35,279 nucleotides of DNA from Archangiaceae bacterium (GCA_043750125.1 JAYVCD010000365.1:1-35279); one strand, 5' to 3'; positions 3,147 through 28,400 are shown, counted from the first letter of the stretch. The notes: generated by a model from the sequence alone, not told the origin. Numbers and translations are program-made.

Positions 3147-4193
3147 TCAGTGGGCTCGCTTTCGTCTCTTGTGGAACTGCACCTGCCACTGATGGACGGC
3201 GGCGTTGTGGCAGGCGAGATCGGGGCAAAAAATGTGGGTCCCGTCATTGCGCGAGACGAAGAACAGGTCGTCGCACTCGATTGGATTGAGGGCGGCGGCA
3301 ATCGCGGCTCCCCCGGGTGAGGCGATGGGCCCGGGAGGCAGACCTTCCGTCATGTAGGTGTTGTACGGGTGCTCGGTCAGCAAGTCGGCGCGGGTGATGT
3401 TCTTCGAGTACCGACCCTTGAGCAGCAGCATCGCGTAGATGACCGTGGGGTCGGTTTGAAGCTTCATCTTCAGCTTGAGGCGGTTGTGAAAGACGCACGA
3501 GATTGTCGGCCGCTCGTCAGCCGCGCCGGTTTCCTTTTCGATGATCGAGGCGAGGGTGACGGCCTGGAGGAGATCCAACTCGATGCCAGGCTTCCGGCGC
3601 GCAGCTTTCACCTGTTCCACCGTGCTCGAGGCCATTCGCTTCAGCACCCCCTCTTCGTTGGCGCCGCGTGGGAACGCGTACGTGTCGGGGTAGAGAAAGC
3701 CTTCGAATGAATCGGCTGGAACGCCGAGCTTCCGTGCGACGGCTGCGTTGGCGGTCAGCTGCTTCAGGGTGGCCAGGCTCAGCTCGAGCCCGGACGACGC
3801 GAGAATGGGGAGGATCTCATCGACCCTCAGCCCCTCGGGCACCGTGAAGGGGTACTGCTTGACCTGCCCGGTGGTGATTTTTTCGATCACTTCCCGCGGA
3901 GTCAGCGTGCCTGAGAACTCGTACTCGCCCGCTTTCAACTTCGGCCCCAGCTCTTCGCGGCGAATCAACGCGTAGAGAAGGTCCGCACTCGAAACGACTC
4001 TTTCGTCGGCCAGCAGGCGCGCAATGCCGCGAGGCGCCATGCCGGCGGGGACGAGGATCAGCTTTTGTTCCGGGCTGCCAAACCCCGTCGCCGCGTAGGC
4101 GGTCAGACGCTGCTCCCTCAAATACCAGAACGCCGCACCCCCGACCGCGGCCACCCCCAGCACCGCGAAGAGGACCCAGACCCTCTTCCTCAC
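3147..4193 (-). CDS. mltG: Endolytic transglycosylase MltG (YceG family)
   Basis: N-terminal TM helix. Motifs LKAGEY, VPEGL, EGFLYPDTY, LASIIEKET, LQTDPTVIY, PYNTY, GLPPGPIASPG. GTG start at 4193 overlaps the ruvX stop. Confidence 0.95.
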   Translation of the reverse strand: MRKRVWVLFAVLGVAAVGGAAFWYLREQRLTAYAATGFGSPEQKLILVPAGMAPRGIARLLADERVVSSADLLYALIRREELGPKLKAGEYEFSGTLTPREVIEKITTGQVKQYPFTVPEGLRVDEILPILASSGLELSLATLKQLTANAAVARKLGVPADSFEGFLYPDTYAFPRGANEEGVLKRMASSTVEQVKAARRKPGIELDLLQAVTLASIIEKETGAADERPTISCVFHNRLKLKMKLQTDPTVIYAMLLLKGRYSKNITRADLLTEHPYNTYMTEGLPPGPIASPGGAAIAAALNPIECDDLFFVSRNDGTHIFCPDLACHNAAVHQWQVQFHKRRKRAH

Positions 4194-4615
4194 TCGTCCT
4201 CGCTCTTCGTTTGGGAATCGAGCCAGCCCTGGAGGATGAGGCAGGCCGCGACCTGGTCGATGACTTCCTTTCGCTTCTTCCGCGAGACGGACGCCTCGAT
4301 CAGCGACCTCTCGGCTGCAACGCTGGTCAGGCGCTCGTCCCAGTACACCACCGGAAGCTGCGCCTGCTCGGCCAACGCCTCGCCGAACTTTCGCGCGTGC
4401 TCGGCGCGCGGCCCCTCGCTGCCATTCATGTTCAGCGGGAGCCCGACAATCAGCCGCACCACGTCTTGTTCTGCAATCAGCCGGGTCAGCTCGTGCAGAT
4501 CCGCGCGCAGGTTGGTGCGGCGCACCGTGGTGATCGGGTGGGCGCTGAAGCCCAGCTCGTCCGAGACCGCCACCCCGACCGTCTTTGTTCCCACGTCCAG
4601 GCCCATCGTCCGCAT
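4190..4615 (-). CDS. ruvX: Holliday junction resolvase-like / pre-16S rRNA nuclease RuvX (YqgF)
   Basis: Motifs GLDVGTKTVGVAVSD, VGLPLNMNG, WDERLTS, IDQVAACLILQGWL. Sits in the classic ruvX-mltG pairing. Confidence 0.95.
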   Translation of the reverse strand: MRTMGLDVGTKTVGVAVSDELGFSAHPITTVRRTNLRADLHELTRLIAEQDVVRLIVGLPLNMNGSEGPRAEHARKFGEALAEQAQLPVVYWDERLTSVAAERSLIEASVSRKKRKEVIDQVAACLILQGWLDSQTKSEDE

Positions 4616-4766
4616 CGGGGCAATCTACCGTTCCAGACGCCACATCTCAGGACGCAGATGGGGTCCGACGGACAAGCGCCTGAATTGAGGCAAATCCTTC
4701 TTGGCCCCGCAGCTGCTCAAGCGTCCCTCACCGCATCCCGCGGGAAGAACCCATACGAGGGCAGGA

Positions 4767-6152
4767 ATGAGCGACGCAATCAGTAGCAGTGGAGCAGGAG
4801 GCGGGTCGAATTCCATGGGCATGTTGCAAGGCCTTCTGGATCCCCTTGGACTCTTCCCGATGATTTCCAAGCTGTTCAAGGGCGGCGATGCCAGCACGAT
4901 GTCCGATCTCGGCAAGTCCGAGCTCAACAACGTCGGCACGTTCAGCGATCCGGGAACCACGCCTGGAGCCGACGGGGCTTCCGGCGCGCCCCCGACTTCC
5001 TACTCAGCGAACCAGGACCAAAGTCAGGCGGCCGCCGGGTACGCGGATGCTGCCAGGAAAGCGGCAGAGCAGGCAGAGATCGTGAAGGACAGGCAGCGAC
5101 AGCGAGACGCTGACGATGCAGCTCACAACACCGGTGTGAAAGACGTGCCCAAACAGGATGACGAGAAAACGAAGGGCACGAACACTCTTCCGCATCACAA
5201 CAAGGTGGTGCCCCAAGATGACGACAAGCCTTCGGGGGCCCCGGGCGAGCAGCATGTTCAGTCGTCTGGAGCCTCTACCGGTGTGATCCAGATCCAGGGA
5301 CAAGCCCGACCAACGGCACTGGTGACCTTGGTCGAGCAGCGGGCTCAGTCGTCTTCGGCCGACACCGGCGTGACCCAGACAAAAGAACAAGACCAGACAA
5401 AACCCGCAGGAACGACCCCGGGAGAGCAGCGTGCTCAGTCGTCATCCGCCGCCACCGCCGGGGTGCAGACGCTCGCGCAAGCACAGGCAAAAGCTGCGGA
5501 AGCCAGGGCGAAGGAAGTCGAAGTCATCAGAACTGTCGTTGCCAACTTCCAGGTCTTCGACTCCCTGGACGTCGTGGGGGGGGACGGGAAATTCGACCCC
5601 GGTAATCTTCAAAACCTCGCGCACAACTCCAAGTACTCGGATCGAATTCAGAAAGCCGCGCAGTACCTGCTGGACCACCCCGAGGTGATGGAAAAGATGG
5701 CGGTCATCAGCACTGGAGGAAACGACCAGGTCAACATCATGGGAATTTCCCAATATTTGAAGAAGCTCATTGACGAACAGGACAAGGAAATCAAAACCCT
5801 GCCCCCCCCTTCGAGTGGAACGGAGACACCTCCCGGCTCCGGTGCTCCTTCCGGCCAAGACCCAATCACCGGCGGCCCAGCAGGGGGCTCAACCCCCGTG
5901 GAACCCCCGAATCAGCCGCAGGCCAAGACGCTCGACGAGGCGCTCGCGAATATTGGCAATTCGATGGATGCCAAAGAGAAAGCCCTGATTGCTGTCTTGA
6001 ACAGCTCGACGGCCCTCGCGGGCGACAAGGCCAAGGCTCAGCAGGACTTGATGAAGGTCACGCAGCAGTTTCAGCAGATGTACGCGCTGATCAATCAACT
6101 CGCCTCCGCGTTCCACGACATGTCGATGTCTTCAATCAATCACATCAAGTGA
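4767..6152 (+). CDS. Hypothetical protein; putative type III secretion substrate (translocator/filament-like)
   Basis: ATG at 4767 preceded by GAGGGCAGGA. Ser/Gly-rich N-terminus with no Sec signal, Q/T/S-rich repeats, an internal DGKFD...AAQYLLDHPE segment, and a C-terminal helical hairpin ending HDMSMSSINHIK. Function is inferred. Confidence 0.55.
   Translation: MSDAISSSGAGGGSNSMGMLQGLLDPLGLFPMISKLFKGGDASTMSDLGKSELNNVGTFSDPGTTPGADGASGAPPTSYSANQDQSQAAAGYADAARKAAEQAEIVKDRQRQRDADDAAHNTGVKDVPKQDDEKTKGTNTLPHHNKVVPQDDDKPSGAPGEQHVQSSGASTGVIQIQGQARPTALVTLVEQRAQSSSADTGVTQTKEQDQTKPAGTTPGEQRAQSSSAATAGVQTLAQAQAKAAEARAKEVEVIRTVVANFQVFDSLDVVGGDGKFDPGNLQNLAHNSKYSDRIQKAAQYLLDHPEVMEKMAVISTGGNDQVNIMGISQYLKKLIDEQDKEIKTLPPPSSGTETPPGSGAPSGQDPITGGPAGGSTPVEPPNQPQAKTLDEALANIGNSMDAKEKALIAVLNSSTALAGDKAKAQQDLMKVTQQFQQMYALINQLASAFHDMSMSSINHIK
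5247..5480 (+). repeat. Three degenerate in-frame repeats (~29-30 aa; EQxxQSSxAxTGV) within the 4767-6152 gene
   Basis: GAGCAGC(A/G)xGxTCAGTCGTC begins at 5247, 5334 and 5424 (spacings of 87 and 90 nt). Confidence 0.8.
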
Positions 6153-6685
6153 AAGCCATGAATGAGCTCAGCCAGGCGGCCGACCCGCAGCAGAAGGGGA
6201 CCCACCCACTCGCCCTCACTTTGCTTGCGCTCGCGAATGGCGAGACGACCTGGGCCGAAGTCGAAGGCTTGACCTTCGAAGACGCCAAGGCAATTGCTCA
6301 AATTGGCTGCGACCTCGCGGCAGGCGGGCGATTGGACGAAGCCCGCATCGTCTTCGAAGGGCTGGTCGCAATGAATCCGCGCGACTCGGCCGCCCACGCG
6401 GCGCTCGGGACGGTCTACCAGAAGCTGGGCCGCATCGAGCAAGCCCTGGCTCAGTACACCGCTGCCCTCTCGGGTGACGCTGCGAACCCCGTCGCCCTGG
6501 CCAACCGGGGCGAGCTTCGGCTCAAAGCCGGCGATCGCCTCGGCGCGGACGATTTGGCGCAGGCGGTGGCCGCGGATCCCCACGGCGAGACTTCCGCCGG
6601 TCGTCGGGCTCGTGGCCTCGTGAAGGCCATCACCCTGGGGACGATCAGGCCCGTGGGCAAAGCCAAAGTCGCCGACCCACGCTAA
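6149..6685 (+). CDS. TPR protein, SycD/LcrH (class II T3SS chaperone)-like
   Basis: Start overlaps the upstream stop (GTGA; alternative ATG at 6158). 'TWAEVEGLTFEDAKAIAQIGCDLAAGGRLDEARIVFEGLVAMNP' is followed by ~3 TPRs, matching the size and layout of LcrH-type chaperones. Confidence 0.7.
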   Translation: MKAMNELSQAADPQQKGTHPLALTLLALANGETTWAEVEGLTFEDAKAIAQIGCDLAAGGRLDEARIVFEGLVAMNPRDSAAHAALGTVYQKLGRIEQALAQYTAALSGDAANPVALANRGELRLKAGDRLGADDLAQAVAADPHGETSAGRRARGLVKAITLGTIRPVGKAKVADPR

Positions 6686-6734
6686 CGAAAACGAGGGCGC
6701 GGGAGTGGGGGACTTCCGAAGACCTCGCCGAGTC

Positions 6735-6763
6735 GGCGGGTAGTGGTTGCAACGCTACCCGCC
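6735..6763. terminator. GC-rich hairpin between convergent genes (possible bidirectional terminator)
   Basis: GGCGGGTAGTG-gttgcaa-CGCTACCCGCC: an 11-bp stem with one G-U pair on the + strand. The U-tail is weak. Confidence 0.5.
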
Positions 6764-6777
6764 CTCCGGTTTCGGCT

Positions 6778-7950
6778 TCATTGAATCGCCGCGAGTCGTT
6801 CGCGAATCGGGGGGTGGGACCAACTCTTCAATACCGCCCACCGGGGAGGGTCCGGATCGGTCTTGTTGATTCGGGCCACTTTGATCAGCATCTGGCGAAA
6901 AGCCTCGACATCACCGGTGAGCTGCAGCCCGAACTGATCTGCGTCCAGCTCACGCTGTCGACTGAACGCTGCGCTGACAGGAGCCGCGGCGACGGTGGCC
7001 AACCAGAAGACCACGAAGATCAGCGGAAGCGTTCGAATGTCCGCCCGCTCTTTCACGCCCCACCAGCCCCTCTGGGCGACGGCTCGAAACAGCACTTCGA
7101 TCAGATACAAAAACGCGAGCAGACACAGCGTCGACGCGAGCTGACCCAGCCACTGTCTTTCGTGAATGTGTCCCGCCTCATGACCCACCACAGCGAGAAT
7201 TTCCCGGGTGTTGAGCTCTTTGAGCAGCGCGTCGTTGAGCACGATGGTCCGGGTCGGACCTTTGCCCGCGAAATAGGCCTGCACCCGCACCGTCTTGCTC
7301 AGCGTTTTTTCGACCACCACTTCTTTGAAGTCGACATTCGCTTTGCGCATCAGCGCGGTGATCTCTTCCCGCAGCTCTCCTTCGGGCAGCGGGGTCTGGT
7401 CGAAATAGATTCGTGCCCGGTATGGGTCCAGGGCTGCTGAAAATACCAGGGCGATCGCGCCGACAATTCCGATCACCAGCCACCATCTTGGCAGTCGCCT
7501 CGCCAGCCCGAACATTCCAAACGCGAGCGCCACCAGCGGGATCATTCCGAGCGCCAGGGACTTCAGCTGATCCCACCCGTAGCTGCTCAGGCTCTGGGTC
7601 GACATTCCGAACCGATGTTCGTGAATGAACTCGAAATAGAAATCCAGAGGAAGAAACGCCAACATACTCCCCAGCTCGAGGACGACGGTGAACAGCAGCG
7701 CGGTACCCCAACCTGAACCGCCCCAGATTCGATCCAGCGCCCGCCTTCCCGTCATCGCTCGGGCCCCAAAGGGGTCCAGGCGCGCCGTCACCCGGCTGGA
7801 CCACGCGTAGAGCGGAACCACCCAGAACCGCAGCGCGAGGGTCCAGAGCAAGAGGCTCAGCCCGTCGTAAGCCAGCCCAAACGCGTAGAGCGGATCTTTG
7901 TAGGCACGAATTTCAGCCAGCGCTTCGGGACTGAAAATCGCGTCGATCAC
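6778..7950 (-). CDS. M48 family membrane zinc metalloprotease (Ste24/HtpX-like)
   Basis: Multiple TM helices, HEAGH zinc motif, 'SRQRELDADQF' third-ligand region, and C-terminal 'SHPPIRERL'. Confidence 0.9.
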   Translation of the reverse strand: MIDAIFSPEALAEIRAYKDPLYAFGLAYDGLSLLLWTLALRFWVVPLYAWSSRVTARLDPFGARAMTGRRALDRIWGGSGWGTALLFTVVLELGSMLAFLPLDFYFEFIHEHRFGMSTQSLSSYGWDQLKSLALGMIPLVALAFGMFGLARRLPRWWLVIGIVGAIALVFSAALDPYRARIYFDQTPLPEGELREEITALMRKANVDFKEVVVEKTLSKTVRVQAYFAGKGPTRTIVLNDALLKELNTREILAVVGHEAGHIHERQWLGQLASTLCLLAFLYLIEVLFRAVAQRGWWGVKERADIRTLPLIFVVFWLATVAAAPVSAAFSRQRELDADQFGLQLTGDVEAFRQMLIKVARINKTDPDPPRWAVLKSWSHPPIRERLAAIQ

Positions 7951-7980
7951 GTGAACGGCTTTTAACTGAAAAGAGCTGCC

Positions 7981-9093
7981 TCAGCCGCGGGGGACCCTGG
8001 CCGGGGGCGACGTTTCTTCTTCGGCTTTTGCGTCCGCGAGCAGCATGTCTTTCATTCGCTTCAGACTTTCGCGGGTTTTCTCGACGAAGGGGCTCGAGGC
8101 TCCGATGCGCTCGGCCGCTTCGAGCGTCCGTTCGTACACCGTGATCGCCTTGGTAATCAGGATCCGGATCTTCTTGCGCAGCTCCTGACTGTAGACGCTG
8201 CCCTCATCCTTGCTCAGCTCGGTGGGGGCGGGGGCGTGCATCATGTGCTCGTACAGGTTTTCGTACAGGCCGCCGATCTGCGCGCCCGCGGCCGTCGCCC
8301 AATAGCCATTGCCGATTCGAATCGCGCGCAGGTAATGACCCTGAGCCGACAACAAGAGCTCGGCTTTGTACTCGACGTCTTTTGCCAGCTGGTCGCTGGT
8401 CTTGTTCGCGTCGAGCGTCACCGCCTCGTAGTGAATCCGGTAGATCTCGCCCATGAAGAACTGCGCTTGAGCCGGGAAATACTCGTCGACCAGGTCTTTG
8501 TCCGGAAGGTCCTGCCAGGTGCTCATCACCTTGCGCAGCGTCGACTCGGCCAGATCCGGTTGGCCGCTTTCCAGCTCGCAGATGCCCTGCTGCACCCGGG
8601 CTTCCATCCGTTTGTTGATCGGCAGGTCACCGCGCGCTCCGATCACCTGCAAGACCGCCACCGCTTCTTCAAAACGGGCCTGGTGGTACAGCGTCTCAGC
8701 CAACCGGAACGCCGCATCGAGCGAATCGCCCGTGCCTTTTGCCGGGTCCGCCAGTTCCAGAAACCGCTGGTGGGCCTCTTCCCAGAGCTTGAGTTTTTCG
8801 AGCGACAGCCCTGCGTTGTAGAGCGCCGCCCGGCGATGAATGCTGTTGGGGTGAAAGTCCGCCAGCCGGCCGAAGTACCGCGCCGCCTGTCCGAAATCGT
8901 CTGACGCGAAGTACGAAGTTCCTCCGGCGAACAGCTCTTCCGCGTTCAGCTTCTCGAGCGCGAGATCTCCGGTGATCACGACTTCGTCGAACTTCACTTC
9001 GTGTTTTCCGTCGACGGTCGAGACCGTCTTGACGTGAGTACAACCGAAGAGAACCAGAACTGGCGCAATCCACAGCTTGCTTCGGTTGGACAC
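7981..9093 (-). CDS. TPR-repeat lipoprotein
   Basis: Likely GTG start at 9093, giving 'VSNRSKLWIAPVLVLFG-C' (lipobox). TPR-like helices follow (ALYNAGLSLEKL, AAFRLAETLYH, AQAQFFMGEIYR). The start codon is uncertain. Confidence 0.75.
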   Translation of the reverse strand: MSNRSKLWIAPVLVLFGCTHVKTVSTVDGKHEVKFDEVVITGDLALEKLNAEELFAGGTSYFASDDFGQAARYFGRLADFHPNSIHRRAALYNAGLSLEKLKLWEEAHQRFLELADPAKGTGDSLDAAFRLAETLYHQARFEEAVAVLQVIGARGDLPINKRMEARVQQGICELESGQPDLAESTLRKVMSTWQDLPDKDLVDEYFPAQAQFFMGEIYRIHYEAVTLDANKTSDQLAKDVEYKAELLLSAQGHYLRAIRIGNGYWATAAGAQIGGLYENLYEHMMHAPAPTELSKDEGSVYSQELRKKIRILITKAITVYERTLEAAERIGASSPFVEKTRESLKRMKDMLLADAKAEEETSPPARVPRG

Positions 9094-9156
9094 GGTTTTT
9101 ACCCTCGAGTCCTCGACTGACAGCCCCTTCACCGCGCCAGTTCCCAAACGGCGATT

Positions 9157-10290
9157 CTAACGGGGGGAGGCCGGCGGTTCGATGTGCGCTTTTCCGAACA
9201 GGTACTGCGACGTGTTCCAGAGGCTTGTGAGGTCATGTACGTCCAGCTCGAATCGGGGAATCAGCACCAGCGGAGTGGGGGCACACAACTCGGCCAGGCG
9301 AGCCACTCCCTTCGCGTCCTGCATCGCCAACTGGTCGTTCTCGTTCAGCGTCGCTTCAACCCGCTTTCGCAGCTCTTCGGGAAGGCGCTTGGCCTGGGCC
9401 CAGAGGGCAGGGGGCACGGGAGGATGCACCCGATTCACCACCACGGCCGCGATGTTCAGATGATTCTGAAGCAAGGTGGTGTGGAAGAAAATGGCCTCGT
9501 CCAGCCGCTCGGCCATCGGGGCGGTCACCAACACGAACGCGGTCGTCTCAGCCTCGAGCAGTGCGCGCGTCTGGTGCGCCCGTTCGCGGAAGCCCTCGTA
9601 CATCGAGCTCATGTGGAGCATGAAATTCGCCAGCTCGTGCAGGGTCTCGGTGCCCGTAAATTTCGAGATCGTCTTCGCGACGTAGCTCGAGCCCAGATTG
9701 AAGAGCTTCAGCCCAATCTTCCCCGCCGCCAGGGCGGGAGTCAGCAGCCACTTGGCCGCGTCGTTGTCGAGAAAATCGAGAATTCGATTGGGCGCATCGA
9801 GAAAATCCAGCGCGTGGGCCGTTGGAGGAGTGTCGAGCACGATCAGTGGGTAGCCGCGCTGCATCCTCAGCTCGCAGAGCTTTTCCATCGCGATGTATTC
9901 TTGCGAGCCCGCCAAGGCCGTCGACAACGATTGGTAGAACCGGTTGCCGAGGATTTTGTCGCGCTTGTCCGGTGGAGCGCGCTGCTCAATCAGATCGTCC
10001 CACGCGCGCTTCATGTCCAACATCATCGCGTGCATCGGCGCCCGTGGTTGTTGGCCCGAGGCCTCGGCCAGAATCGTGTCCGGAATGCGGGTCTCGGCGT
10101 TGCCGAGCTCGGCCAGACCCAGCGAGTTGGCCAGCCGCTTCGCGGGATCAATCGTGCAGACCAGAGCTCCTTTCCCCTCGACCGCCGCCCGCAAGGCGAG
10201 GGTCGCGGCCACGGTCGTCTTTCCGACTCCCCCGGGGCCCACGCAGAGCACCACATTGCTTCTGCGCAGCGCGTCTTGAATTGGATTCAC
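9157..10290 (-). CDS. ArsA/GET3-like ATPase (subunit lacking the signature lysine)
   Basis: Walker A GPGGVGKTT, switch I TIDPAKRLANSLG, switch II LDTPPTAHALDFL, VVVNRV. Confidence 0.9.
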   Translation of the reverse strand: MNPIQDALRRSNVVLCVGPGGVGKTTVAATLALRAAVEGKGALVCTIDPAKRLANSLGLAELGNAETRIPDTILAEASGQQPRAPMHAMMLDMKRAWDDLIEQRAPPDKRDKILGNRFYQSLSTALAGSQEYIAMEKLCELRMQRGYPLIVLDTPPTAHALDFLDAPNRILDFLDNDAAKWLLTPALAAGKIGLKLFNLGSSYVAKTISKFTGTETLHELANFMLHMSSMYEGFRERAHQTRALLEAETTAFVLVTAPMAERLDEAIFFHTTLLQNHLNIAAVVVNRVHPPVPPALWAQAKRLPEELRKRVEATLNENDQLAMQDAKGVARLAELCAPTPLVLIPRFELDVHDLTSLWNTSQYLFGKAHIEPPASPR

Positions 10291-11183
10291 TTCGGCCCCA
10301 GGTGGCCGCTGATCTCTTCAATCGCCGCGCGACCGAAGGTGGGGGTGAACAAACGCGGCACCTTCAAGACCGGGGTCCCCAGCGCCTCGAGCCGCTGAAC
10401 CGCAGACAGCGAAAGCCTGGCGCGCGCCTGGTGGGCAAGCGCCAGTTCCTGAAGAGCTCCCCTGGGAAGCTGCTCGATGTCGGCCGCCGAGAAGCGCATC
10501 GGAATGAAGGCGTTGACCACCACCAACTGGGGCTGAATCTGAACCCGGTCTTTGAGCGCGGCCGCGAGCTCAATCGTCTCGTTGATCGGCATTTCTTCAG
10601 GCAGCGAGACCAGCACCGCAGCCGTCATCGACGGGTCCACCAGGAACTCGCGCATCCACCTTGCGTCGTTGGCGAGCGCGCCCGGTGGAACGGTGTCGAG
10701 GACGACCTTGGGCACCGAGAAGAACGTGATCGCGTGACCGGTCGACGGCGCGTCGATGATGATCCGCTCGAACCGCCAACTGCCATCGGGGCGCTTCTCT
10801 TTGAGGTGGAACAGAATCTTCCCCAGGATCACCAGTTCCTGCAGCGAAGGGACGAAACGCAGAAAGTAACGCACCAGCCGATTTTCGAAGACCGCGTTGT
10901 AGATGCTCTCGAACTTCAGGGTCATCAGCGCGTACTCGCGCATCGCCTCCTGCGGCTTTACGTCCACCGCCCAGAGGTTCTCTTCGAACGACGTAATCTG
11001 GGCCCCCGTCTCGGGTCGTCCCAGCAGTCCCGCGACGCGCTCGCGCGCATTGACCTCGCACACCAACGTGCGCTGGCCGGCTCGGGCGCTCGCCAGTGCC
11101 AGCGCCGCCGCGACCGTGGTCTTGCCCACGCCGCCTTTGCCCGTGACGATGATGAGTCGCTTGTCGAGGAGAACTGGAATCAC
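10287..11183 (-). CDS. ArsA/GET3-like ATPase
   Basis: Walker A TGKGGVGKTT, 'PSLQELVILGKI', 'IDAPSTGHA', 'PEEMPINETIE', VVVN. Probable GTG start at 11183. The stop overlaps the start of the downstream ATPase. Confidence 0.9.
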   Translation of the reverse strand: MIPVLLDKRLIIVTGKGGVGKTTVAAALALASARAGQRTLVCEVNARERVAGLLGRPETGAQITSFEENLWAVDVKPQEAMREYALMTLKFESIYNAVFENRLVRYFLRFVPSLQELVILGKILFHLKEKRPDGSWRFERIIIDAPSTGHAITFFSVPKVVLDTVPPGALANDARWMREFLVDPSMTAAVLVSLPEEMPINETIELAAALKDRVQIQPQLVVVNAFIPMRFSAADIEQLPRGALQELALAHQARARLSLSAVQRLEALGTPVLKVPRLFTPTFGRAAIEEISGHLGPK

Positions 11184-11199
11184 AGTGACTTCTCGAACC

Positions 11200-11228
11200 T
11201 TGACACGCTCGAACGTGGAGATCAGCAT
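11200..11228 (+). promoter_or_regulatory. Candidate sigma70-type promoter for the small protein-ParA operon
   Basis: Perfect TTGACA (11200-11205), a 17-nt spacer, then CAGCAT (11223-11228), ending 10 nt before the ATG at 11239. Confidence 0.45.
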
Positions 11229-11238
11229 CTGCGCGCCC

Positions 11239-11535
11239 ATGCTCACTAACAACCCCGTGATGAAGAAGCTGGTGGCGACCGGCGAAGAGCGAATCGGAAA
11301 GATCGCTCAACAGTTGCTCTCCAACGAGAAGTTCGTGGGCGCGGTTCAAACGCTCGTCTCACGCACCCTGACGGCCAAGGGCACGCTGGACAAGAGCCTG
11401 CGCAGCGCTCTGTCGGCGATGAACCTGCCTTCGACCGGTGACCTGGAAATCTTGCGTGAGAAAGTCGACGAGCTCGAGCGGCTGCTCTCGTCAGTCGAGG
11501 GGAAAATCGATCAGATGATCGAGAAGAAGAAGTGA
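11239..11535 (+). CDS. Small coiled-coil protein, phasin/PhaE C-terminus-like
   Basis: 98 aa of amphipathic helices. 'AMNLPSTGDLEILREKVDELE' resembles the LPSxxD/ExxxLxxRLxELE motif of PHA granule-associated proteins. The stop overlaps the ParA start (GTGA). Confidence 0.7.
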   Translation: MLTNNPVMKKLVATGEERIGKIAQQLLSNEKFVGAVQTLVSRTLTAKGTLDKSLRSALSAMNLPSTGDLEILREKVDELERLLSSVEGKIDQMIEKKK

Positions 11536-12320
11536 CAGTTCGCCGCATCGCCTTCATCAACGAGAAGGGCGGCACCTGCAAAACGACCCTGGCCGTAAAT
11601 ACGGCTGCCTGGTTTGCGCAGAAGAAGGGCCTTCGGGTGCTGTTGATTGATCTCGATACCCAGGGTCATGCCGGCAAGTCGCTGGGCATCGACGTGCGCT
11701 CGCTTCCGACCAATGTCTTCCACTGGCTGACCAACACCAACGTGTCGCTGAAAGACGTGGTGCGTCCGACCGCGATTCCCAGCCTTTTCGTAGTTCCTTC
11801 GTACAAGCAGATGGCCAATTTTCCGCTGCAGGTCGCAAACCAGGTCGACCGCGACGTGCTGCTGCGTGAACGGATGAAAGAAGTCGAAGACGCAGGCTAC
11901 GAGCTGATCGTCTTTGATTCTCCGCCGTCGCTTGGGCTCACCACCACGAACATTCTGCTCGCCGCGACAGAGGTCGTGGTTCCGGTGGCGACCACCTATC
12001 TGGCGCTCGATGGTTGCGCCGAGATGAGCGAGACGGTGCGCAAGGTCTCCGAGAAGGACAACCAGGCGCTCTACATCTCGCTGGTGGTCCCGACGCTCTA
12101 CCGAAAGACCGCCCTGGCCGATGAGGTGCTCGAGCGGCTCGAGCGCTATTTCCCCGGCCGGATGGCGCGTCAGCCGCTGGCGCTCAACGTGGCCATCGAC
12201 GAAGCGCAGAGTCACGGGAAGACAATCTGGGAGTACGCCCCCTGGAGCCGAGGCGCCACGCTGCTTCAATCGGTGGCCGAAGACGTAGACGCTGCCGGCA
12301 GACGCACTGCGGTTCCCTGA
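11532..12320 (+). CDS. Orphan ParA/Soj family ATPase
   Basis: NEKGGTCKTT (variant Walker A), LLIDLDTQGHA, FDSPPSLG, 'IDEAQSHGKTIWEYAP'. No parB is adjacent. Confidence 0.9.
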   Translation: MTVRRIAFINEKGGTCKTTLAVNTAAWFAQKKGLRVLLIDLDTQGHAGKSLGIDVRSLPTNVFHWLTNTNVSLKDVVRPTAIPSLFVVPSYKQMANFPLQVANQVDRDVLLRERMKEVEDAGYELIVFDSPPSLGLTTTNILLAATEVVVPVATTYLALDGCAEMSETVRKVSEKDNQALYISLVVPTLYRKTALADEVLERLERYFPGRMARQPLALNVAIDEAQSHGKTIWEYAPWSRGATLLQSVAEDVDAAGRRTAVP

Positions 12321-12341
12321 AAACCGGGTCCCCCTTCGGAA

Positions 12342-12944
12342 CTAGCCCTTCTTCTCTTCCAGCGCGTCGAGTTTCTTTTCCAACGCTTCGATGCGCTGCA
12401 CCAACGCGCCCAGATCGCGGCCCAGGGCAGGAAGGTTGCCGACGACGTTGTCGACCACTGCTTTCACCCGCTCGTCGACCTTCTTCTGGAAGTCTTCCAG
12501 CGCTCTCTGGCTGCCCTTGAGCAATTCGACCGGTGAGAGATTCTGACCCGAGGGGACTTCGACGTTCGACTTGTCGCCCGTTCCGTCTTCGCGACCCAGC
12601 AGCTTATCGAGCCGCGACTCGGCCTCTTCCCTGATGCTGGTGACGCGGGGCGTGACGCTCTTGATGAACTCGGAAATCTGCTCGCCCGGGCGACGAATGA
12701 TCTCGCGCAACACCGACAGCGGCATCCGGGTGGTCTTCTTTTCTTCTTCGAATACGATCTGCGCCAGCGTGACTGAGGTGAGGTCTTCCTTGGTCCGGTT
12801 GTCGACGATTTTCACCTCGACGCCCTGCTTCACCATCTCGGCGATCTCATCGAGCGTGACGTAGCGACTCTCGACCGTGTCGTAGAGCTTGCGGTTGGTG
12901 TACCGCTTGATCACCTTGGGCTCGGAAGCCGCTTCGTCGCTCAT
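12342..12944 (-). CDS. PhaR-type (PHB_acc_N) DNA-binding domain protein with C-terminal coiled coil
   Basis: 'IKRYTNRKLYDTVESRYVTLDEIAEMVKQG...VDNRTKEDLTSVTLAQI' is the PhaR N-terminal signature. ATG at 12944. Confidence 0.9.
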   Translation of the reverse strand: MSDEAASEPKVIKRYTNRKLYDTVESRYVTLDEIAEMVKQGVEVKIVDNRTKEDLTSVTLAQIVFEEEKKTTRMPLSVLREIIRRPGEQISEFIKSVTPRVTSIREEAESRLDKLLGREDGTGDKSNVEVPSGQNLSPVELLKGSQRALEDFQKKVDERVKAVVDNVVGNLPALGRDLGALVQRIEALEKKLDALEEKKG

Positions 12945-13042
12945 GTTGTGGGTGGAAGCGCACTCGAAATTGACGCGCTGCGCGAACGCGAATAGCACCG
13001 GGGTGTTTGACCCGCAAGGCTATAGTCCCCGGGCCGCCGGCC

Positions 13043-14557
13043 ATGATCGTCAAATGCGAGCAGTGCCAGACACGGTTCAAGATCCCCGACGACAAGGTCA
13101 CTGAGAAAGGGGTCAAGGTCCGCTGTACCAAGTGCCAGCACACCTTTCGGGTGAAGCGGGACGGAACTTCCTCGCCCGCCGGCCAATCGCAAGGCGCGAT
13201 GCCCGCCCTTCAGGTCGCTTCGGTCCCCAAGTTGGTGGACGATCCTTTCGCCGCGTTCGGCGCAGCGAGCGAAGAGGACGTAGGTGAAGCGACCCGGCCC
13301 GGGATGTATGCGATGGGCGTCGAAGCCTCGCGCCACGCCGAACCGCCGCTCCAGCCTTCCTTCGCGGCCCAGAGGGCACTGCCGGCCCATTTGTTCGACG
13401 AACCGACCCGGGTGGGCGCTTTTCCTTTTCCTCCTCCGGGCCGAAAGGGTGTGCCCGACGAGGTCACCCACCGGTCTTCTCCGTTCGACTTTGCCGCTGC
13501 GCTGGGAGCAGCCGAGCCGTCCGCCCCGCCGCCTCCCTTCGACTTTGCCGCGCCCCCCGTGCCCGAGCCGCCCACCCAATACGAGGCGCCAGCGGCGCGC
13601 GCGCAACCTCCGGTTCCCTTCGACCCCTCGCCGGACAACGACCCCTTCAACAGCATCGACTTCGGCGGGGGCGCGCTGACGACCCCCAACGCGCCCATCG
13701 TCAAAGAGCCCGAAGCGCCCTCGGTCTTCGGCGACGGCGGCGGAGATTTTTTCGCAGCCGCAGAAGAGCCTTCTGTGACGCAGAACATTCGGCCCGATTC
13801 CCTGGGGCTGAGCGAAGAGGGGGAAGTCGAAGCAGACACCAGCCAGCGTGCCGCGCTGTTCGACATGCCGCCTCCCGAGCCCAATCGGCCGCCCGAGACC
13901 TTTGATTCCCCCAGTCCCGAGGTGGGCCCGGCGCCGCTGGCACTTCCCCGCCGCGACAGCGTTCCGTTGGGAAGAATCACGGCTCCCGAGTTGTCGGTCG
14001 AAGCGATTGCGCCCAGGCGAAAGCTCGGGGGCATGATTCTCAACGTGGCCATCGCCTCGATGCTGGTGAGCCTGTTGACGGTGATCGTCACCGTCTACCT
14101 CAGCGAAGGAAAGGTGGAACTGGCCTCGTTCAACCTCGAGCGACTCAAGGCAACTTTCACCGCGCCGACCGATTGGGCCGCACTCGACATCTCCAACGGC
14201 CTGTATGAAACGCGGGCCGGAAGGCCGGTGTTCTTCGTGCGCGGGGAAGTGAAGAACCGCAGTGGGAAGGCCACCCGGGCGAAGGTTCGCGCCGAGATTC
14301 TCGATGGGGACAAAGTCATTCGCCACGCCGACGCGTGGATTGGTGCGGCCCCCACGCCAGAAGACCTGTATTTGATCTCGGTCGCCGATGACGTCGAGCG
14401 GTTGTTGCAGAAGCTGGAAAAGTCAGCCGCTGAAGTGATGCCGAACGAAAAGCGCGGCTTTCTGGTTCCGTTCTTCGAGTACCCACCGGACCTGAAAGGT
14501 TTTCGCGTCAGGGTGACGGTGATCGAGTCCGATCACAAAGAGACCGCGGCGCGCTGA
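13043..14557 (+). CDS. Zinc-ribbon (MJ0042-type finger) / DUF3426-like bitopic membrane protein
   Basis: 'CEQCQTRFKIPDDK...VRCTKCQHTF', a long Pro/acidic linker, one TM helix, and a C-terminal Ig-like domain (FFVRGEVKN). Confidence 0.85.
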   Translation: MIVKCEQCQTRFKIPDDKVTEKGVKVRCTKCQHTFRVKRDGTSSPAGQSQGAMPALQVASVPKLVDDPFAAFGAASEEDVGEATRPGMYAMGVEASRHAEPPLQPSFAAQRALPAHLFDEPTRVGAFPFPPPGRKGVPDEVTHRSSPFDFAAALGAAEPSAPPPPFDFAAPPVPEPPTQYEAPAARAQPPVPFDPSPDNDPFNSIDFGGGALTTPNAPIVKEPEAPSVFGDGGGDFFAAAEEPSVTQNIRPDSLGLSEEGEVEADTSQRAALFDMPPPEPNRPPETFDSPSPEVGPAPLALPRRDSVPLGRITAPELSVEAIAPRRKLGGMILNVAIASMLVSLLTVIVTVYLSEGKVELASFNLERLKATFTAPTDWAALDISNGLYETRAGRPVFFVRGEVKNRSGKATRAKVRAEILDGDKVIRHADAWIGAAPTPEDLYLISVADDVERLLQKLEKSAAEVMPNEKRGFLVPFFEYPPDLKGFRVRVTVIESDHKETAAR

Positions 14558-24511: not shown

Positions 24512-26284
24512 CTACTGGTTGGTGTACATCAGCGTCTGGTACAGCTTCTGGAAGTCAGCGAGCTTGAGGTCGAAGATTCCGTCGTTCGGCCCGTTGCCCG
24601 CAGGCTCGGTCTCGCCCCAGGGATTGCGCAGGGTGACGAGCTTCTCGCCGTTGACTTCCTTGTAGCCGAGCACCGAGTACGAGTGGTCCGAGTGGACGCC
24701 GGTGTTGGTGTAGAGCGCGTCCTGGTCGTCACCGTAGGTGCCCGCCGAGACCGGCTGCTTGGTGTCGATTGCCGTCTTGAGCGTGGTCCACAGCTTGTCG
24801 GCCTGGGTGTACTTGATGCTCATGTTCTGGCCGTCCTTGCCGAGCACTTCTTGAAAGATATTGCTCGAGAGGCCGCCGTTGCCGATGTCGTTGTAGCTGC
24901 CCTTCCACTGCGCGTAGGCCTTCTCGACGAGGGGGAACCACAGCTCCATCGTCTTCTCGCCCTTGTCGGCGCCCAGCGTCGCGCCGTACAGCGGCCCGCC
25001 CCAGCTGCGGACATAGAGGTCGCCGTCGATCTTGACCGGCACGTCCTTGTAGCGCCCGGTCGCCCAGTCTTTCTCTTTGAAGTTGACCGTGTAGGTCCCG
25101 TCGCCGTTCTCTTTGATCATCTTCTGCAGCGCTTCAGAGTTGTTGAGCGCCATCGCCGCGAACGCGGAAGGAATGTAGCAATCGCCCAGTTGGCCCTGCT
25201 GCACGTCGGTGACTGCCGGGCCGTCTTTGAAGAGCGGGCCGGTGAAGCGCTTGGTCGAAAACTTCGCAGTGCCGTCGGCATTCAGCTCGTCTTTGTGAAG
25301 CGCCGGATCTTTGATCAGGTCGCCGTCTGCAGGAACGCCGCCCGGAACGGTGAGCTTGCCGACCTCGCTTGCGAAGTCCGAATTGTTCTTCCCGTCGGAA
25401 GCCGCGACCGAGAACACGTCGCCCGCTTTGCCGGCAATGGTTGTGCCCGCCGGAAAGCTGCCTTTGTCGTCGATGGTGACCTTGGTCTTTTCGCCAGTGC
25501 GCGCGTTGGTGAACTGGAGCACTGCGCCCGGCTCGGACACCTGGCGGCTGGCGTTGATGTTCGCCAGGCCCACCTTGCCGCCGCCGGCGTCGGTCAAGCC
25601 GATGCGAAAGATCGCGACGACTGCGTTTCGGGTGTCGCTGATGGCCAGGCCGCCGGCCTTGACGGTGACCCAGTCGCCTGCGGTGCCGTCGGCGTGGCGG
25701 GCCCGCATGCGGATCAAGTCGCCTTCCTGCATCGCCTGGTCTCCGCTGAGCTGGGCGTTCTTGAACTGGCCCGCGGCGTCGGCCTTGCCGATTTCCATCG
25801 TGTCTTCGAGCATCAGGCGGCCCGAAGGTGCTGCGCTCAGGTTGATGGCTTCGATGCTGTCGCCCGCGGTGGCGCTGCCGGTGATGCCGGTGGCCTGGTT
25901 GCCGCTGATCTTCAGGCTGCCGTTGCCGACCGGAAGGGGAGGAGGAGGAGGCGGCGGCTGAGGCGCGCGCCCCACCACGGCTTCGAGGAAGGCGCGGGCG
26001 TCGACTTCGAGGGGGACCGTGCCGGCGTCGAGGATCTGCTCGAGGTCCGTCTTTTCGCTGCTGCTCATGCCCTTCTTCACGATGTCGACCTGGGTCTGTC
26101 GAGCGATGCCCGGCTTCTGCAGGTCGGCCAGAACCTTCGAGGCCGACGCAAACCAGCGATCTCCGACCGAGGCGAGAATGTCGAGGACCTGGGCCTGACC
26201 GATTTTGACGTTCGGGTTGGTGCGCTGCTCGGTCTCGAGTTTGGTGTAGACGGCAGCAATTCCCCGGTCGTTGATTTTCGGCAT
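24512..26284 (-). CDS. Calpain-like (peptidase C2) cysteine protease with N-terminal helical domain and Ig-like repeats
   Basis: Catalytic triad motifs QQGQLGDCY, HSYSV and LRNPWG, plus 'LWFPLVEKAYAQ'. Poly-Pro linker. No signal peptide. Confidence 0.9.
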   Translation of the reverse strand: MPKINDRGIAAVYTKLETEQRTNPNVKIGQAQVLDILASVGDRWFASASKVLADLQKPGIARQTQVDIVKKGMSSSEKTDLEQILDAGTVPLEVDARAFLEAVVGRAPQPPPPPPPLPVGNGSLKISGNQATGITGSATAGDSIEAINLSAAPSGRLMLEDTMEIGKADAAGQFKNAQLSGDQAMQEGDLIRMRARHADGTAGDWVTVKAGGLAISDTRNAVVAIFRIGLTDAGGGKVGLANINASRQVSEPGAVLQFTNARTGEKTKVTIDDKGSFPAGTTIAGKAGDVFSVAASDGKNNSDFASEVGKLTVPGGVPADGDLIKDPALHKDELNADGTAKFSTKRFTGPLFKDGPAVTDVQQGQLGDCYIPSAFAAMALNNSEALQKMIKENGDGTYTVNFKEKDWATGRYKDVPVKIDGDLYVRSWGGPLYGATLGADKGEKTMELWFPLVEKAYAQWKGSYNDIGNGGLSSNIFQEVLGKDGQNMSIKYTQADKLWTTLKTAIDTKQPVSAGTYGDDQDALYTNTGVHSDHSYSVLGYKEVNGEKLVTLRNPWGETEPAGNGPNDGIFDLKLADFQKLYQTLMYTNQ

Positions 26285-26387: not shown

Positions 26388-28400
26388 TCAGCGTCCAAAG
26401 AGGCGTTTGAGACCCTGAAACAGGCCCTTGGTCTCGCTCGAAGCTTCGCCCGGAAGAGGGGCGTCGGCAAAGAGTCGGGCCCGCATTTCATCGCTCGCGT
26501 CGGCGGTCGAAAAAGAGGCAGTTCCCTTGCGGCCGACCGCTTCCACGTCGAGCCGACCATCGGCGCTGACGGCAAATCGAAGCAGCAGCTCTCCGGGCTT
26601 GTCGACGACGGCATGCAGGGCGCCGAGGTACTCATTTTCATCGGCCCGGGGGTTGGTGCCCTGAAAGACAGCCACTTCCACCGGCCGATCATGAACCGGG
26701 ACGCAGAGGGTCTTTTCAGCCGGAAGGCGGGTGTTCCGCTCGAGCACCCGCAGGAACCCGCCGCCTTTGACCGCGACGCCGATCGGCGCTGAGAGGACCT
26801 CGGACAACGACACGCCTGCCTTTCCCCGCTCGGATTGCACCAGCGAGTGGCCGAAGATCGCCGCGCCGAGCGCGACCGCCCCTTGAGGATCTACGTCCGT
26901 CCGCGGTGCGCGGCCGAGCAACGCCTCGAGTCGCTTGCGAACCAGGGGCGCACGGCTCTGACCTCCGACCAGCAGCACTTCGTCCAGCGCCGAGGCATTG
27001 ACCCGGCCGACCTCGAGCACGATGCGGGTGACCTCGGACGTGCGTTCGACCAGGTCGGCCGTGAGCAGATCAATCTGGGCGCGCGTCAGGTTGGCCCGAA
27101 GATCCACCGGCGCTCCGGCTTCATCGCTGACAGCGAGCGGAACGTGCACCGAGGCGTCCTCTACATCTGAAAGCGCAATCTTCGCGACCTCGGCTGCGTC
27201 CCGAACGCGTTCCCACGAAACGCGGGACTGCCTGAGGCGAAGTTGCAGGGGCTGGGGCAGCGTCAAGGCCAACGCATCGGCGACGCGCTCGTCGAAGTCG
27301 ACCCCGCCCAGAAAATTGTCGCCTCCGGTGGACACCACCTCGAGGTCATCGCCCGTCATCTCGACCACCGAAGCGTCGAAGGTCCCTCCTCCGAGGTCGT
27401 AGACGAGCAGGCGTTTGCGCGCGAGGCCGCGGCCATAGCCGAACGCGAGCGCGACCGCGGAAGGCTCGTTGAGGATCCGCAGCACCTCGAGCCCGGCCAG
27501 ACGCCCGGCTTCGAGCACCGCGCCGCGCTGATGATCCGAATACCATGCGGGCACGCAGAGCACGGCGCGCTTGAGCTCGCGCTCGAGCACGTCCTGGGCG
27601 CAGCTCTTGATTTCTTTGAGCAGCAACGAGGCGAGCTCCGGCAGCGACCACACCCGACCCCCGAGCTCCGCCCCGGCGTCGCCGTCTTGATCTGCGACCA
27701 CCTTGAACGGAAAGCGCGGCAACAGCTGCTGCACGGCTTTGGAGCGTGCCCTTTGGCCGAGCAGGCGCTTCAAGCCGGTGACCGCAAAATCCGGCTGTTC
27801 AGCGCGCAGGCCGCGGGCGGCCAGGCCGACCCGAAGCACCCCTTTGTCGTCGAGCGCGACCAGGGACGGCAGCGCAAACTCGGTGGGCCCGCCGAGGGGA
27901 ATCAGCTGCGGCGCGCCGTCGAGCCAGAGGGCCGCTCGGCAGGTGGTGGTGCCCAGGTCGATGCCCAGCACCACGTCGTCGGCGAGCAGGGCGGCCGCCG
28001 GCTTCAACCCCCGTCCTGGGCTTGCCGTGTTCGGAATTGGAACCGAAGGCTCGCTGGCCAGGGGTTCGGCGTTCAGCACCCCTTCCCGAAACGAGAGAAT
28101 CTTGTCGATCAACGCGCGGCTTCGGGCATCGAGGCGGACGAAGCGCACCAGCATCCCGCTCTTGCCCGGAGTCTCGTCTTCCTGCACCTGCTGCACCGTG
28201 CCCTCGCCGCGCATCAGGCGATCGCCACTTTGAAGCACGAGCTCGAACGCGATTGCGGTGCCCAGCGGCTTGACGGCGCGGGTGGCGATGAAAATGCCTC
28301 CGCGCGCGACGTTCTGTCCGTAGCGCTCGACGAACTCGTCCTCGCTCGCAAACGGGAGCCGGATGCGCAGCGCGACCGGCTTGGCGTCGGAAGCAGTCAC
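26388..28400 (-). CDS. TIGR02266/PilZ-like domain fused to an Hsp70 (DnaK-like) protein
   Basis: N-terminal 'FVERYGQNVARGGIFIAT...GMLVRFVRLD'. Hsp70 motifs GIDLGTT, VPAWY, NEPSAVALAFG, YDLGGGTFD, GGDNFLGGVDFD, VLLVGGQSR. GTG at 28400 overlaps the upstream stop. Confidence 0.9.
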   Translation of the reverse strand: MTASDAKPVALRIRLPFASEDEFVERYGQNVARGGIFIATRAVKPLGTAIAFELVLQSGDRLMRGEGTVQQVQEDETPGKSGMLVRFVRLDARSRALIDKILSFREGVLNAEPLASEPSVPIPNTASPGRGLKPAAALLADDVVLGIDLGTTTCRAALWLDGAPQLIPLGGPTEFALPSLVALDDKGVLRVGLAARGLRAEQPDFAVTGLKRLLGQRARSKAVQQLLPRFPFKVVADQDGDAGAELGGRVWSLPELASLLLKEIKSCAQDVLERELKRAVLCVPAWYSDHQRGAVLEAGRLAGLEVLRILNEPSAVALAFGYGRGLARKRLLVYDLGGGTFDASVVEMTGDDLEVVSTGGDNFLGGVDFDERVADALALTLPQPLQLRLRQSRVSWERVRDAAEVAKIALSDVEDASVHVPLAVSDEAGAPVDLRANLTRAQIDLLTADLVERTSEVTRIVLEVGRVNASALDEVLLVGGQSRAPLVRKRLEALLGRAPRTDVDPQGAVALGAAIFGHSLVQSERGKAGVSLSEVLSAPIGVAVKGGGFLRVLERNTRLPAEKTLCVPVHDRPVEVAVFQGTNPRADENEYLGALHAVVDKPGELLLRFAVSADGRLDVEAVGRKGTASFSTADASDEMRARLFADAPLPGEASSETKGLFQGLKRLFGR

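Follow-up and report, generated by a model that had tools for sequence, protein, structure and literature searches.

Class II chaperones of bacterial type III secretion systems (T3SSs), such as SycD/LcrH with its clients YopB/D, PcrH with PopB/D and IpgC with IpaB/C, are small all-helical proteins with three tetratricopeptide repeats (TPRs) and a capping helix, and are encoded directly beside their clients. In the passages of one study that describe their binding mode, the client motif is six residues long, is hydrophobic at positions 1, 3 and 6 and is held extended in the groove, and YopD engages SycD at two sites, through an N-terminal peptide and through a C-terminal amphipathic helix (PMC3443056). 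We analysed a two-gene locus at positions 4767-6685 of a 35,279-nucleotide stretch of DNA from an Archangiaceae bacterium (GCA_043750125.1, JAYVCD010000365.1:1-35279; the whole stretch is referred to here as the window). Gene 1 encodes a candidate secreted substrate and gene 2 a three-TPR protein, and the locus is best explained as a single operon in which a client is encoded together with a TPR chaperone dedicated to it.

Two other groups of described proteins are relevant to this locus. In the parts of two papers that treat it, the T3SS* cluster of Myxococcus xanthus (MXAN_2434-2464) is reported to contain an export apparatus, an ATPase, a C-ring and several LcrH homologues and to lack a secretin, a needle and a translocon; the same parts describe T3SS* as conserved in myxobacteria and needed for prey lysis, and its effectors as unknown (PMC10433427, PMC12075869). 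The putative translocon proteins of the HrpF type (HrpF, PopF) are characterised, in a portion of a further paper, as unusually divergent and repeat-bearing, with no predicted transmembrane helix (PMC5483457).

A class II chaperone-like protein and its predicted client complex

The gene 2 protein is class II chaperone-like by both family and fold. Its best NCBIfam match is LcrH_SycD (TIGR02552; E 1.1e-14, 54.3 bits, profile positions 4-112 of 136), followed by PilW (3e-7) and SctY (7e-5), and in Pfam it matches generic TPR models only. LcrH_SycD is matched at E <= 0.001 by all 42 of the 42 aligned homologues. Three control TPR proteins, drawn from the window and from a second locus (L002, see below), differ in this respect: two match LcrH_SycD (0.0037 and 6.4e-5) but score better with another model, and the third does not match it. 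The AlphaFold2 model (mean predicted local distance difference test score, pLDDT, 87; predicted template modelling score 0.76) has the layout described for class II chaperones, all-helical proteins of about 150-170 residues (PMC3443056), with six helices forming three TPRs (H40-55/H59-72, H77-89/H93-106 and H111-123/H128-139) and a C-terminal capping helix (H146-163).

Structural databases place the protein in the same neighbourhood. A sequence search of the PDB gave its top scores to designed consensus TPRs and OGT, and the longest single-stretch match to a natural protein was PcrH (E 6.5e-8, residues 34-163). Profile comparison of the gene 2 family with IpgC (from pCP301) by hhalign returned E 8e-5 at a probability of 61% over 95 columns, including the segment that precedes the TPRs. 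The fold search was led by IpgC (E 4e-6), then PcrH, SycD and an Aeromonas T3SS complex; nine of the top 12 matches are IpgC, PcrH, SycD or T3SS complex structures and the other three are designed TPRs. A first-pass annotation of this DNA had described gene 2 as a three-TPR protein of class II chaperone size and had proposed the comparison with LcrH and IpgC, and both the family and the fold results bear it out.

The chaperone is widely conserved. A word-indexed search recovered 412 relatives; those listed are ~60-78% identical and include Myxococcus xanthus DK 1622, M. stipitatus, Corallococcus, Pyxidicoccus, Hyalangium and Archangium. Two features are invariant in 42 of 42 gene 2 sequences: a cysteine of the first TPR helix, C51, and a G-E-T-x-x-x-R-R-A segment (residues 143-151) just before the capping helix.

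We next consider the predicted complex of the full-length gene 1 protein (alignment A5) with the gene 2 protein (alignment A4), which was run alongside controls. The median score was 0.64 (runs 0.64, 0.81 and 0.60) against 0.01 for the best control. In the reference sets this mark is attained by 116 of the 157 solved complexes and by 2 of the 215 mismatched pairs, counts that are approximate here, our own alignments having been used. The runs share at least 15% of their contacts, with a partner pLDDT of 76-81. On the substrate side, the predicted interface consists of residues 74-96 together with 403 and 427-448, and on the chaperone side of the A-helices of all three TPRs. The contacts with the lowest predicted error involve substrate residues 78, 79, 89, 91 and 92 (among them Y79, G91 and Y92).

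The N-terminal contact region is also the single conserved island in the N-terminal half of the client. Across 32 sequences, only seven positions in residues 1-250 are at least 70% conserved (M1, P26, G39, N54, T77, G91 and Y92), and three of them, T77, G91 and Y92, lie in the 23-residue stretch 74-96. This coincidence is not independent evidence, since the model saw the alignment. As predicted, the binding mode resembles that of class II pairs, with an N-terminal client peptide in the concave groove and an additional contact from a C-terminal amphipathic helix, and so recalls the two-site mode of YopD-SycD. The model of the pair that the first-pass annotation had called for scores above its controls and supports binding in silico. 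All in all, the two proteins probably form a chaperone-client pair.

The client family and its NolX/HrpF-type repeat

The gene 1 protein has 461 residues and is acidic (isoelectric point 5.1) and hydrophilic (grand average of hydropathy -0.58), with neither Cys nor Trp. Three properties read from the sequence in the first pass hold for it. Its highest 19-residue hydropathy is 1.11, near the N-terminus, which indicates no Sec-like signal and no membrane helix. The N-terminus is rich in Ser and Gly (6 Ser and 6 Gly in the first 25 residues), and the C-terminus is modelled as a helical hairpin, of whose second helix the originally quoted segment (residues 423-461) forms part. The AlphaFold2 model as a whole has a mean pLDDT of 66; most of residues 1-230 are disordered, and the confident parts are a helix at 93-121, a domain at 230-345 and the C-terminal hairpin (Table 1).

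Residues 1-29 are possibly a secretion signal; within them, the Ser/Gly-rich part is followed by a conserved (L)DPLG(L) motif, whose P26 is kept in 84% of the 32 sequences. The imperfect repeats at ~159-250 are low in complexity and poorly conserved, with pLDDT < 50, and Tandem Repeats Finder detected no repeat there at the DNA level. The folded domain at 230-345 contains one repeat unit of the form FD..DGKFD.GNL......AAQYLLDHPE. Conservation across the family is highest in the hairpin, which ends in ...M..L.SN..K.FHDMSM.SI.HI.

An exhaustive search with gene 1 recovered 42 representatives at E <= 0.001, 14 of these at <= 1e-10. The word-indexed search was nearly blind to this family, with 2 matches, or 3 with profile A5, and was probably swamped by low-complexity words. 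Among the 42 relatives, 20 match Pfam NolX (best 2.1e-23, 83.7 bits) and 8 match T3SS_HrpK1, always through a central unit FD..DG.F.R..L......R.AAQYLLDHPE. The closest relative with a direct NolX match is P0134 (E 0.0019, below gathering). NCBIfam adds 10 weak matches among the relatives to the short BPSL0761 model and a match of one multi-repeat member to XopAW, and multi-repeat relatives match EF-hand models. With one of these, P0135, tblastn leads to NopX of NGR234 and to a rhizobial protein annotated as 'HrpF/NolX family T3SS translocon protein'. Aligned directly by hhalign, the close-clade gene 1 profile (A2) matches NopX of NGR234 at E 2e-4 with a probability of 47% over 57 columns, gene 1 residues 277-333 corresponding to NopX 145-202. 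The nearest ESM Atlas clusters are from Myxococcota, and 12% and 73% of their members have NolX (score 0.91, 186 shared features). Together these matches support a relationship, as judged from sequence, between the gene 1 family and type III translocon proteins, one that would run through the central NolX/HrpF-type repeat and not through the C-terminus; the first-pass annotation does not mention this repeat.

An EF-hand-like unit, …DG.(I/F)...L......(R/K).AA.YL..HPE, is probably common to gene 1 and to HrpF, NolX (NopX), PopF and HrpK1 (PF05819, PF16937). Like these proteins, the gene 1 protein is hydrophilic, and it matches the traits reported for the HrpF type in being highly divergent between relatives, in its internal repeats and in having no predicted transmembrane helix. 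It differs in falling under all Pfam thresholds and in having a single copy of the repeat. NopX has a Gly/Ala-rich hydrophobic C-terminal region (hydropathy 1.52 at 526-544) that gene 1 lacks; in gene 1 the C-terminus is a hairpin specific to its own family, and a motif for the chaperone lies towards the N-terminus. The HrpF/NolX group comes from plant symbionts and pathogens, whereas gene 1 belongs to Myxococcota. Harpins (HrpN, HrpZ, HrpW, PopA) are glycine-rich, cysteine-free, acidic and hydrophilic proteins with no Sec signal. The gene 1 protein is like them in each of these respects; no sequence relationship to them was found.

When the complete gene 1 model is searched by fold, the EF-hand-like domain dominates the result. 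The best matches are S100/calmodulin structures at E 0.046 or weaker, and no match reaches E <= 0.001. The EF-hand has no Pfam match in the gene 1 protein, and its loop, DVVGGDGKFDPGNL, is non-canonical by inspection. An 'EF-hand/Calpain' cluster of the ESM Atlas is a loose structural neighbour of the protein.

A scan of genome contigs with alignment A3 (one pattern) gave 62 stretches, of which 3 passed a tblastn check and one, L002, was relevant. Two others were set aside: L004 matches by chance within recA, and in L003 the match is a small ORF with a single repeat, close to an integrase and HicAB. L002 is a locus in a Myxococcaceae metagenome-assembled genome, read from 6000 to 14000 of its 20 kb. 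Its gene order is a PMT_2 glycosyltransferase, mltG, ruvX, a 499-residue member of the gene 1 family (P0152), a 169-residue TPR gene, a TPR lipoprotein and two ArsA/Bag-like ATPases, with a gap of 4 nt between substrate and chaperone genes. This is the order of the window, except that the M48 peptidase gene is missing (between L002 11285 and 11414). By BLASTP, the flanking proteins are 69% (ruvX), 60% (mltG), 49% (glycosyltransferase), 68% (TPR lipoprotein), and 69% and 62% (ATPases) identical between the two loci. The chaperones are 67% identical; the substrates reach 34% over only 95 residues, those of the EF-hand-like domain. A second clade, with a Gly/Ala-rich N-terminal region and the ending ...KFNEMAKTAI.NMARA, includes P0152, which still aligns with gene 1 along its whole length.

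The cassette therefore has the appearance of a fixed locus in conserved synteny, in which the chaperone is kept and the client diverges fast. The first-pass annotation had called it a dispersed and possibly variable module. It is not dispersed on this evidence, since in the single further genome recovered the pair is again found next to ruvX, and its variability is confined to gene 1.

The second clade (P0136, P0142, P0153 and P0156; L002 9272-9500) has a segment of its own, GLPPEV..AAK.G.GIATGN....G, with hydropathy up to 1.7. This Gly/Ala-rich N-terminal segment is absent from the clade of the window and might be a membrane-active element.

The locus and its neighbours

The coordinates of the locus are collected in Table 1. 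They agree with the outline drawn in the first pass, in which two adjoining genes lie between ruvX and the M48 peptidase gene and are followed by a hairpin.

Table 1. Features of the locus, in window coordinates.
Feature	Position	Strand	Remarks
mltG/YceG	3147-4643	-	upstream flank (Pfam scan)
ruvX	4190-4615	-	upstream flank (Pfam scan)
Divergent intergenic region, ruvX (-) / gene 1 (+)	4616..4766	+	Shine-Dalgarno-like GAGGG/AGGA at 4757-4766
Gene 1	4767..6152	+	ATG 4767, TGA 6150-6152; 461 residues; candidate secreted substrate
Ser/Gly-rich disordered N-terminus, residues 1-29	4767..4853	+	includes (L)DPLG(L) motif; pLDDT ~50; alignments A2, A5
Predicted chaperone-binding motif, residues 74-96 (APPTSYSANQDQSQAAAGYADAA)	4986..5054	+	conserved T-E/S-Y ... 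G-Y-A
Three imperfect ~30-residue repeats, residues ~159-250	5241..5516	+	EQ[HR][VA]QSS[GS]A.TGV...; cores at 162, 191, 221 (regular expression)
Folded helical domain, residues 230-345	5454..5801	+	one probable NolX/HrpF-type, EF-hand-like repeat; pLDDT mostly > 90
Pro/Gly/Ser-rich disordered linker, residues 346-388	5802..5930	+	pLDDT 42-51; length variable in A2
C-terminal amphipathic helical hairpin, residues 389-460	5931..6146	+	H389-412, H418-460; pLDDT 80-84
Gene 2	6149..6685 (GTG start, 178 residues) or 6158..6685 (ATG start, 175 residues)	+	class II T3SS chaperone-like, three TPRs
GC-rich hairpin, convergent gap between gene 2 and M48 peptidase gene	6735..6763	.	arms 6735-6743 / 6755-6763
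M48 peptidase gene	6778-7950	-	downstream flank (Pfam scan)

The start of gene 1 at 4767 is supported by the N-terminus MSDAI..., which it shares with its relatives in alignment A2, and by the Shine-Dalgarno-like sequence just upstream. The database form of the protein (P0003, 445 residues) starts at M17 and omits window positions 4767-4814. This call is probably 16 codons too short, since the upstream MSDAI... N-terminus is present in the relatives. The promoter of gene 1 is presumed to lie in the divergent intergenic region, where a scan for the sigma-70 consensus found 0 sites, a consensus that says little for a myxobacterium. For gene 2, the GTG at 6149 would give the 4-nt GTGA overlap with the gene 1 stop proposed in the first pass. 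That overlap is possible, and a 5-nt gap is at least as likely, because the N-termini of 41 homologues (M-x-[RK]-I-I-K) align with the ATG at 6158. The two genes are tightly linked whichever start holds.

Both genes are real and not chance open reading frames (ORFs), given their relatives (42 representatives for gene 1 and 412 for gene 2), their higher GC content at third than at second codon positions (GC3 > GC2) and the conserved synteny. We also considered a foreign island. GC3 is 0.71, compared with 0.73-0.87 for the neighbours, and the locus is syntenic, so this idea is unsupported. The hairpin downstream has arms that form a perfect 9-bp inverted repeat (100% complementary), with 11 pairs in the fold and a fold z-score of -2.5. 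It may be a bidirectional terminator; it lacks a T-run, and the terminator scan made no call there. The window contains no match to an Rfam family and no tRNA, and Tandem Repeats Finder reported no tandem repeat in the DNA.

An antisense ORF over gene 2 at 6140-6583 (-; 147 residues, GC3 0.75) is a typical mirror-frame ORF of GC-rich DNA and shows no sign of being a gene. Beside the cassette in both genomes lie the TPR lipoprotein (YbgF/BamD-like) and two ATPases of the Get3/ArsA family (window 7981-12320; L002 11414-14784), whose best NCBIfam matches are BagB (3.5e-95) and BagA (7.9e-38); in the window a ParA-like ATPase follows them (11532-12320). Further along, an MJ0042-type zinc ribbon protein is encoded at 13007-14557 (+), with an N-terminus that matches the gliding-motility GltJ model at E 4e-11, far below the cut-off. 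The 590-residue protein encoded at 24512-26284 (-) matches the cysteine protease domain of the calpain family (PF00648, E 1.8e-31). An ORF at 27243-28574 (+) matches Pfam NAD-GH (PF10712, E 7e-26) and lies antisense to an Hsp70-family gene at 26388-28727 (-), which has a 250-residue N-terminal extension; we take the match to be, probably, an artefact of sequence antisense to dnaK and not a gene.

Type III secretion and the rival explanations

An LcrH-like chaperone and a NolX-repeat client encoded outside the T3SS* cluster would fit as a T3SS* substrate module. We see about even chances that the pair is built on the plan of type III translocator and class II chaperone pairs, export by T3SS* included. 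The first-pass annotation had proposed a substrate-chaperone module for a myxobacterial T3SS. The chaperone likeness, the NolX relation and the predicted binding speak for that proposal. The step to a T3SS is one that we infer from homology and from the published conservation of T3SS* in myxobacteria; export, a T3SS* route and an extracellular role would be expected by analogy.

Several observations weigh against this reading, and they concern each part of it. On the chaperone side, the gene 2 protein reaches 54.3 bits where the curated LcrH_SycD cut-off is 104.8, and so does not rank as an equivalog of LcrH/SycD. Small residues stand in place of the class II groove tyrosines: in the hhalign comparison the four Tyr of the first TPR helix of IpgC face A47, I49, C51 and A54, and helix 40-55 has no Tyr at all; in SycD, Tyr40 and Tyr47 are conserved and line the hydrophobic concave groove. 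A tblastn search of 72,556 plasmids with the gene 2 protein gave 14 records, the best a 662-residue Azospirillum TPR protein, and no plasmid-borne T3SS chaperone was among them; 12 have an annotated feature at the matching position (11 tetratricopeptide repeat proteins and one TIGR03032 family protein) and 2 are unannotated there. On the client side, the gene 1 protein itself has no Pfam match (0 families at E <= 1), no NCBIfam match and no PDB sequence match. It fails the gathering score of Pfam NolX (PF05819; 26.1 bits), and plasmid searches with it and with P0156 of the second clade gave nothing. Its probable link to NolX is either transitive or at an hhalign probability of 47%. The EF-hand-like repeat is present, too, in proteins whose surroundings show no sign of a T3SS; that of L003, beside an integrase and HicAB, is an example.

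The complex and the locus add to these points. The client motif, T-x-Y...G-Y-A, does not fit the published six-residue motif, which is hydrophobic at 1, 3 and 6, and differs from the P/V-x-L-x-x-P of class II clients, and the client, unlike theirs, has no hydrophobic or transmembrane domain. The complex may have passed its controls partly from the predictor's memory of solved class II chaperone-peptide structures. Gene 2 lies directly beside its client as class II chaperone genes do, here in the order client then chaperone, and it lies outside any sct cluster. As the first-pass annotation had stated, no T3SS apparatus gene is visible in the 35-kb window: a Pfam scan of 26 ORFs (5 of them without any family) and an NCBIfam scan of 10 gave no match to a T3SS family. 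The synteny, finally, rests on one additional genome.

These points have to be set beside the alternatives. The two genes might be mere neighbours, gene 2 a generic TPR scaffold and gene 1 an unrelated disordered protein with no functional interaction between them. TPR domains are promiscuous, interface predictions are fallible and the adjacency is confirmed in two genomes only; yet a 4-5 nt gap or overlap joins the genes in both, the complex scored far above every control (<= 0.01) at a mark that mismatched pairs hardly ever reach, and the predicted interface falls on the conserved motif, so we regard a chance neighbourhood as quite unlikely. A proposal of another kind concerns the C-terminal hairpin, which the first-pass annotation had likened to the C-termini of needle, filament and translocator proteins. 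It might be a polymerisation module of SctF/SctA type, which would make gene 1 the missing myxobacterial needle or filament subunit. The hairpin is a helix-turn-helix with a conserved C-terminal helix and the best conserved part of its family, yet such an architecture is not needle-specific. Profile searches of the PDB gave nothing at E < 0.05 with alignment A2 or with the wider alignment A1; the third-best match with A2 was a 43-residue chain, 7y6c_F, aligned end to end at the C-termini (E 0.22, or 1.6 with A1). The SctF model TIGR02105 is touched by 1 of 42 relatives (E 0.055) and not by gene 1 itself. In the comparison with needle and filament proteins that had been suggested, hhalign placed the C-termini of the gene 1 family and MxiH in register, but at a probability of 1% (P 0.05), and returned nothing for MxiI or IpaD. 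Passages of one study also describe TPR co-chaperones of needle proteins binding a C-terminal helix (PMC3443056), and gene 1 residues 427-448 lie in the predicted chaperone interface, so that its hairpin may contact the TPR protein much as in SctF systems (YscF-YscE/G, PscF-PscE/G). All the needle matches are nevertheless insignificant, short amphipathic hairpins match one another easily, the gene 1 protein has 461 residues against 83 for MxiH and ~80 for SctF proteins in general, and no second, SctE-like co-chaperone gene accompanies it. The likeness that was claimed for the C-terminus lacks statistical support and stands as a lead, and a needle or filament subunit is very improbable.

A more serious competitor accepts the chaperone-client pair and removes it from type III secretion. 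The client would then be intracellular, as a calcium-binding or regulatory EF-hand protein, or exported by a Kil/Tad apparatus, a type VI secretion system, outer-membrane vesicles or lysis. The absence of sct genes nearby, the position of the syntenic locus among the housekeeping genes ruvX and mltG, and the resemblance of the folded domain to an EF-hand pair in the fold search and the ESM Atlas all fit this explanation. At the level of BLAST, moreover, generic TPR proteins match gene 2 as well as any T3SS chaperone does, and homologues carry the JGI label 'Flp pilus assembly protein TadD'. Against it, the best profile and fold matches of gene 2 are specifically class II T3SS chaperones, with the control TPR proteins behaving differently, and the only named relatives of the client are T3SS translocon families. 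A TadD-type pilotin was dropped as a candidate for gene 2 because the protein lacks a lipoprotein signal (its only Cys is C51, inside TPR1). We judge a role outside type III secretion to be somewhat unlikely, and less so than either of the two preceding alternatives.

If the pair does belong to type III secretion, the most likely sequence of events can be outlined. A cytoplasmic chaperone of three TPRs and a capping helix would hold the newly made, largely disordered substrate, taking its motif at ~74-96 (T-x-Y ... G-Y-A) in extended form into the concave TPR groove and making secondary contacts with its C-terminal amphipathic helix. Bound in this way, the substrate would stay in solution and fit for export up to its handover to the export gate, the most likely exporter being the conserved 'needle-less' T3SS* of myxobacteria. 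Outside the cell, the substrate could act as a hydrophilic accessory or translocator factor, harpin- or HrpF-like, at the site of contact with prey. A further step, which we offer as a tentative and rather doubtful extension, is that the pair is the first identifiable T3SS* substrate-chaperone module and supplies the translocon- or tip-like function missing from the T3SS* cluster. The extreme divergence of the substrate beside a conserved chaperone would then result from an arms race with the surfaces of prey, and the hairpin, at the boldest, would be a remote needle or filament assembly module.

Judged on titles and abstract openings, full-text searches of the literature gave nothing that joins NolX with Myxococc*, nothing on myxobacteria with HrpF, harpin, NopX or PopF, and nothing on a Myxococcus chaperone/translocator pair. 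The pair is a concrete candidate for cargo of T3SS*, whose substrates and delivery route are presented as open in the parts of the two papers that treat them, for want of a needle, a translocon and a secretin in the cluster (PMC10433427, PMC12075869). With it, the range of the NolX/HrpF repeat, so far one of Proteobacteria associated with plants, would come to include predatory Myxococcota, and it suggests a new client motif for TPR chaperones of the class II type.

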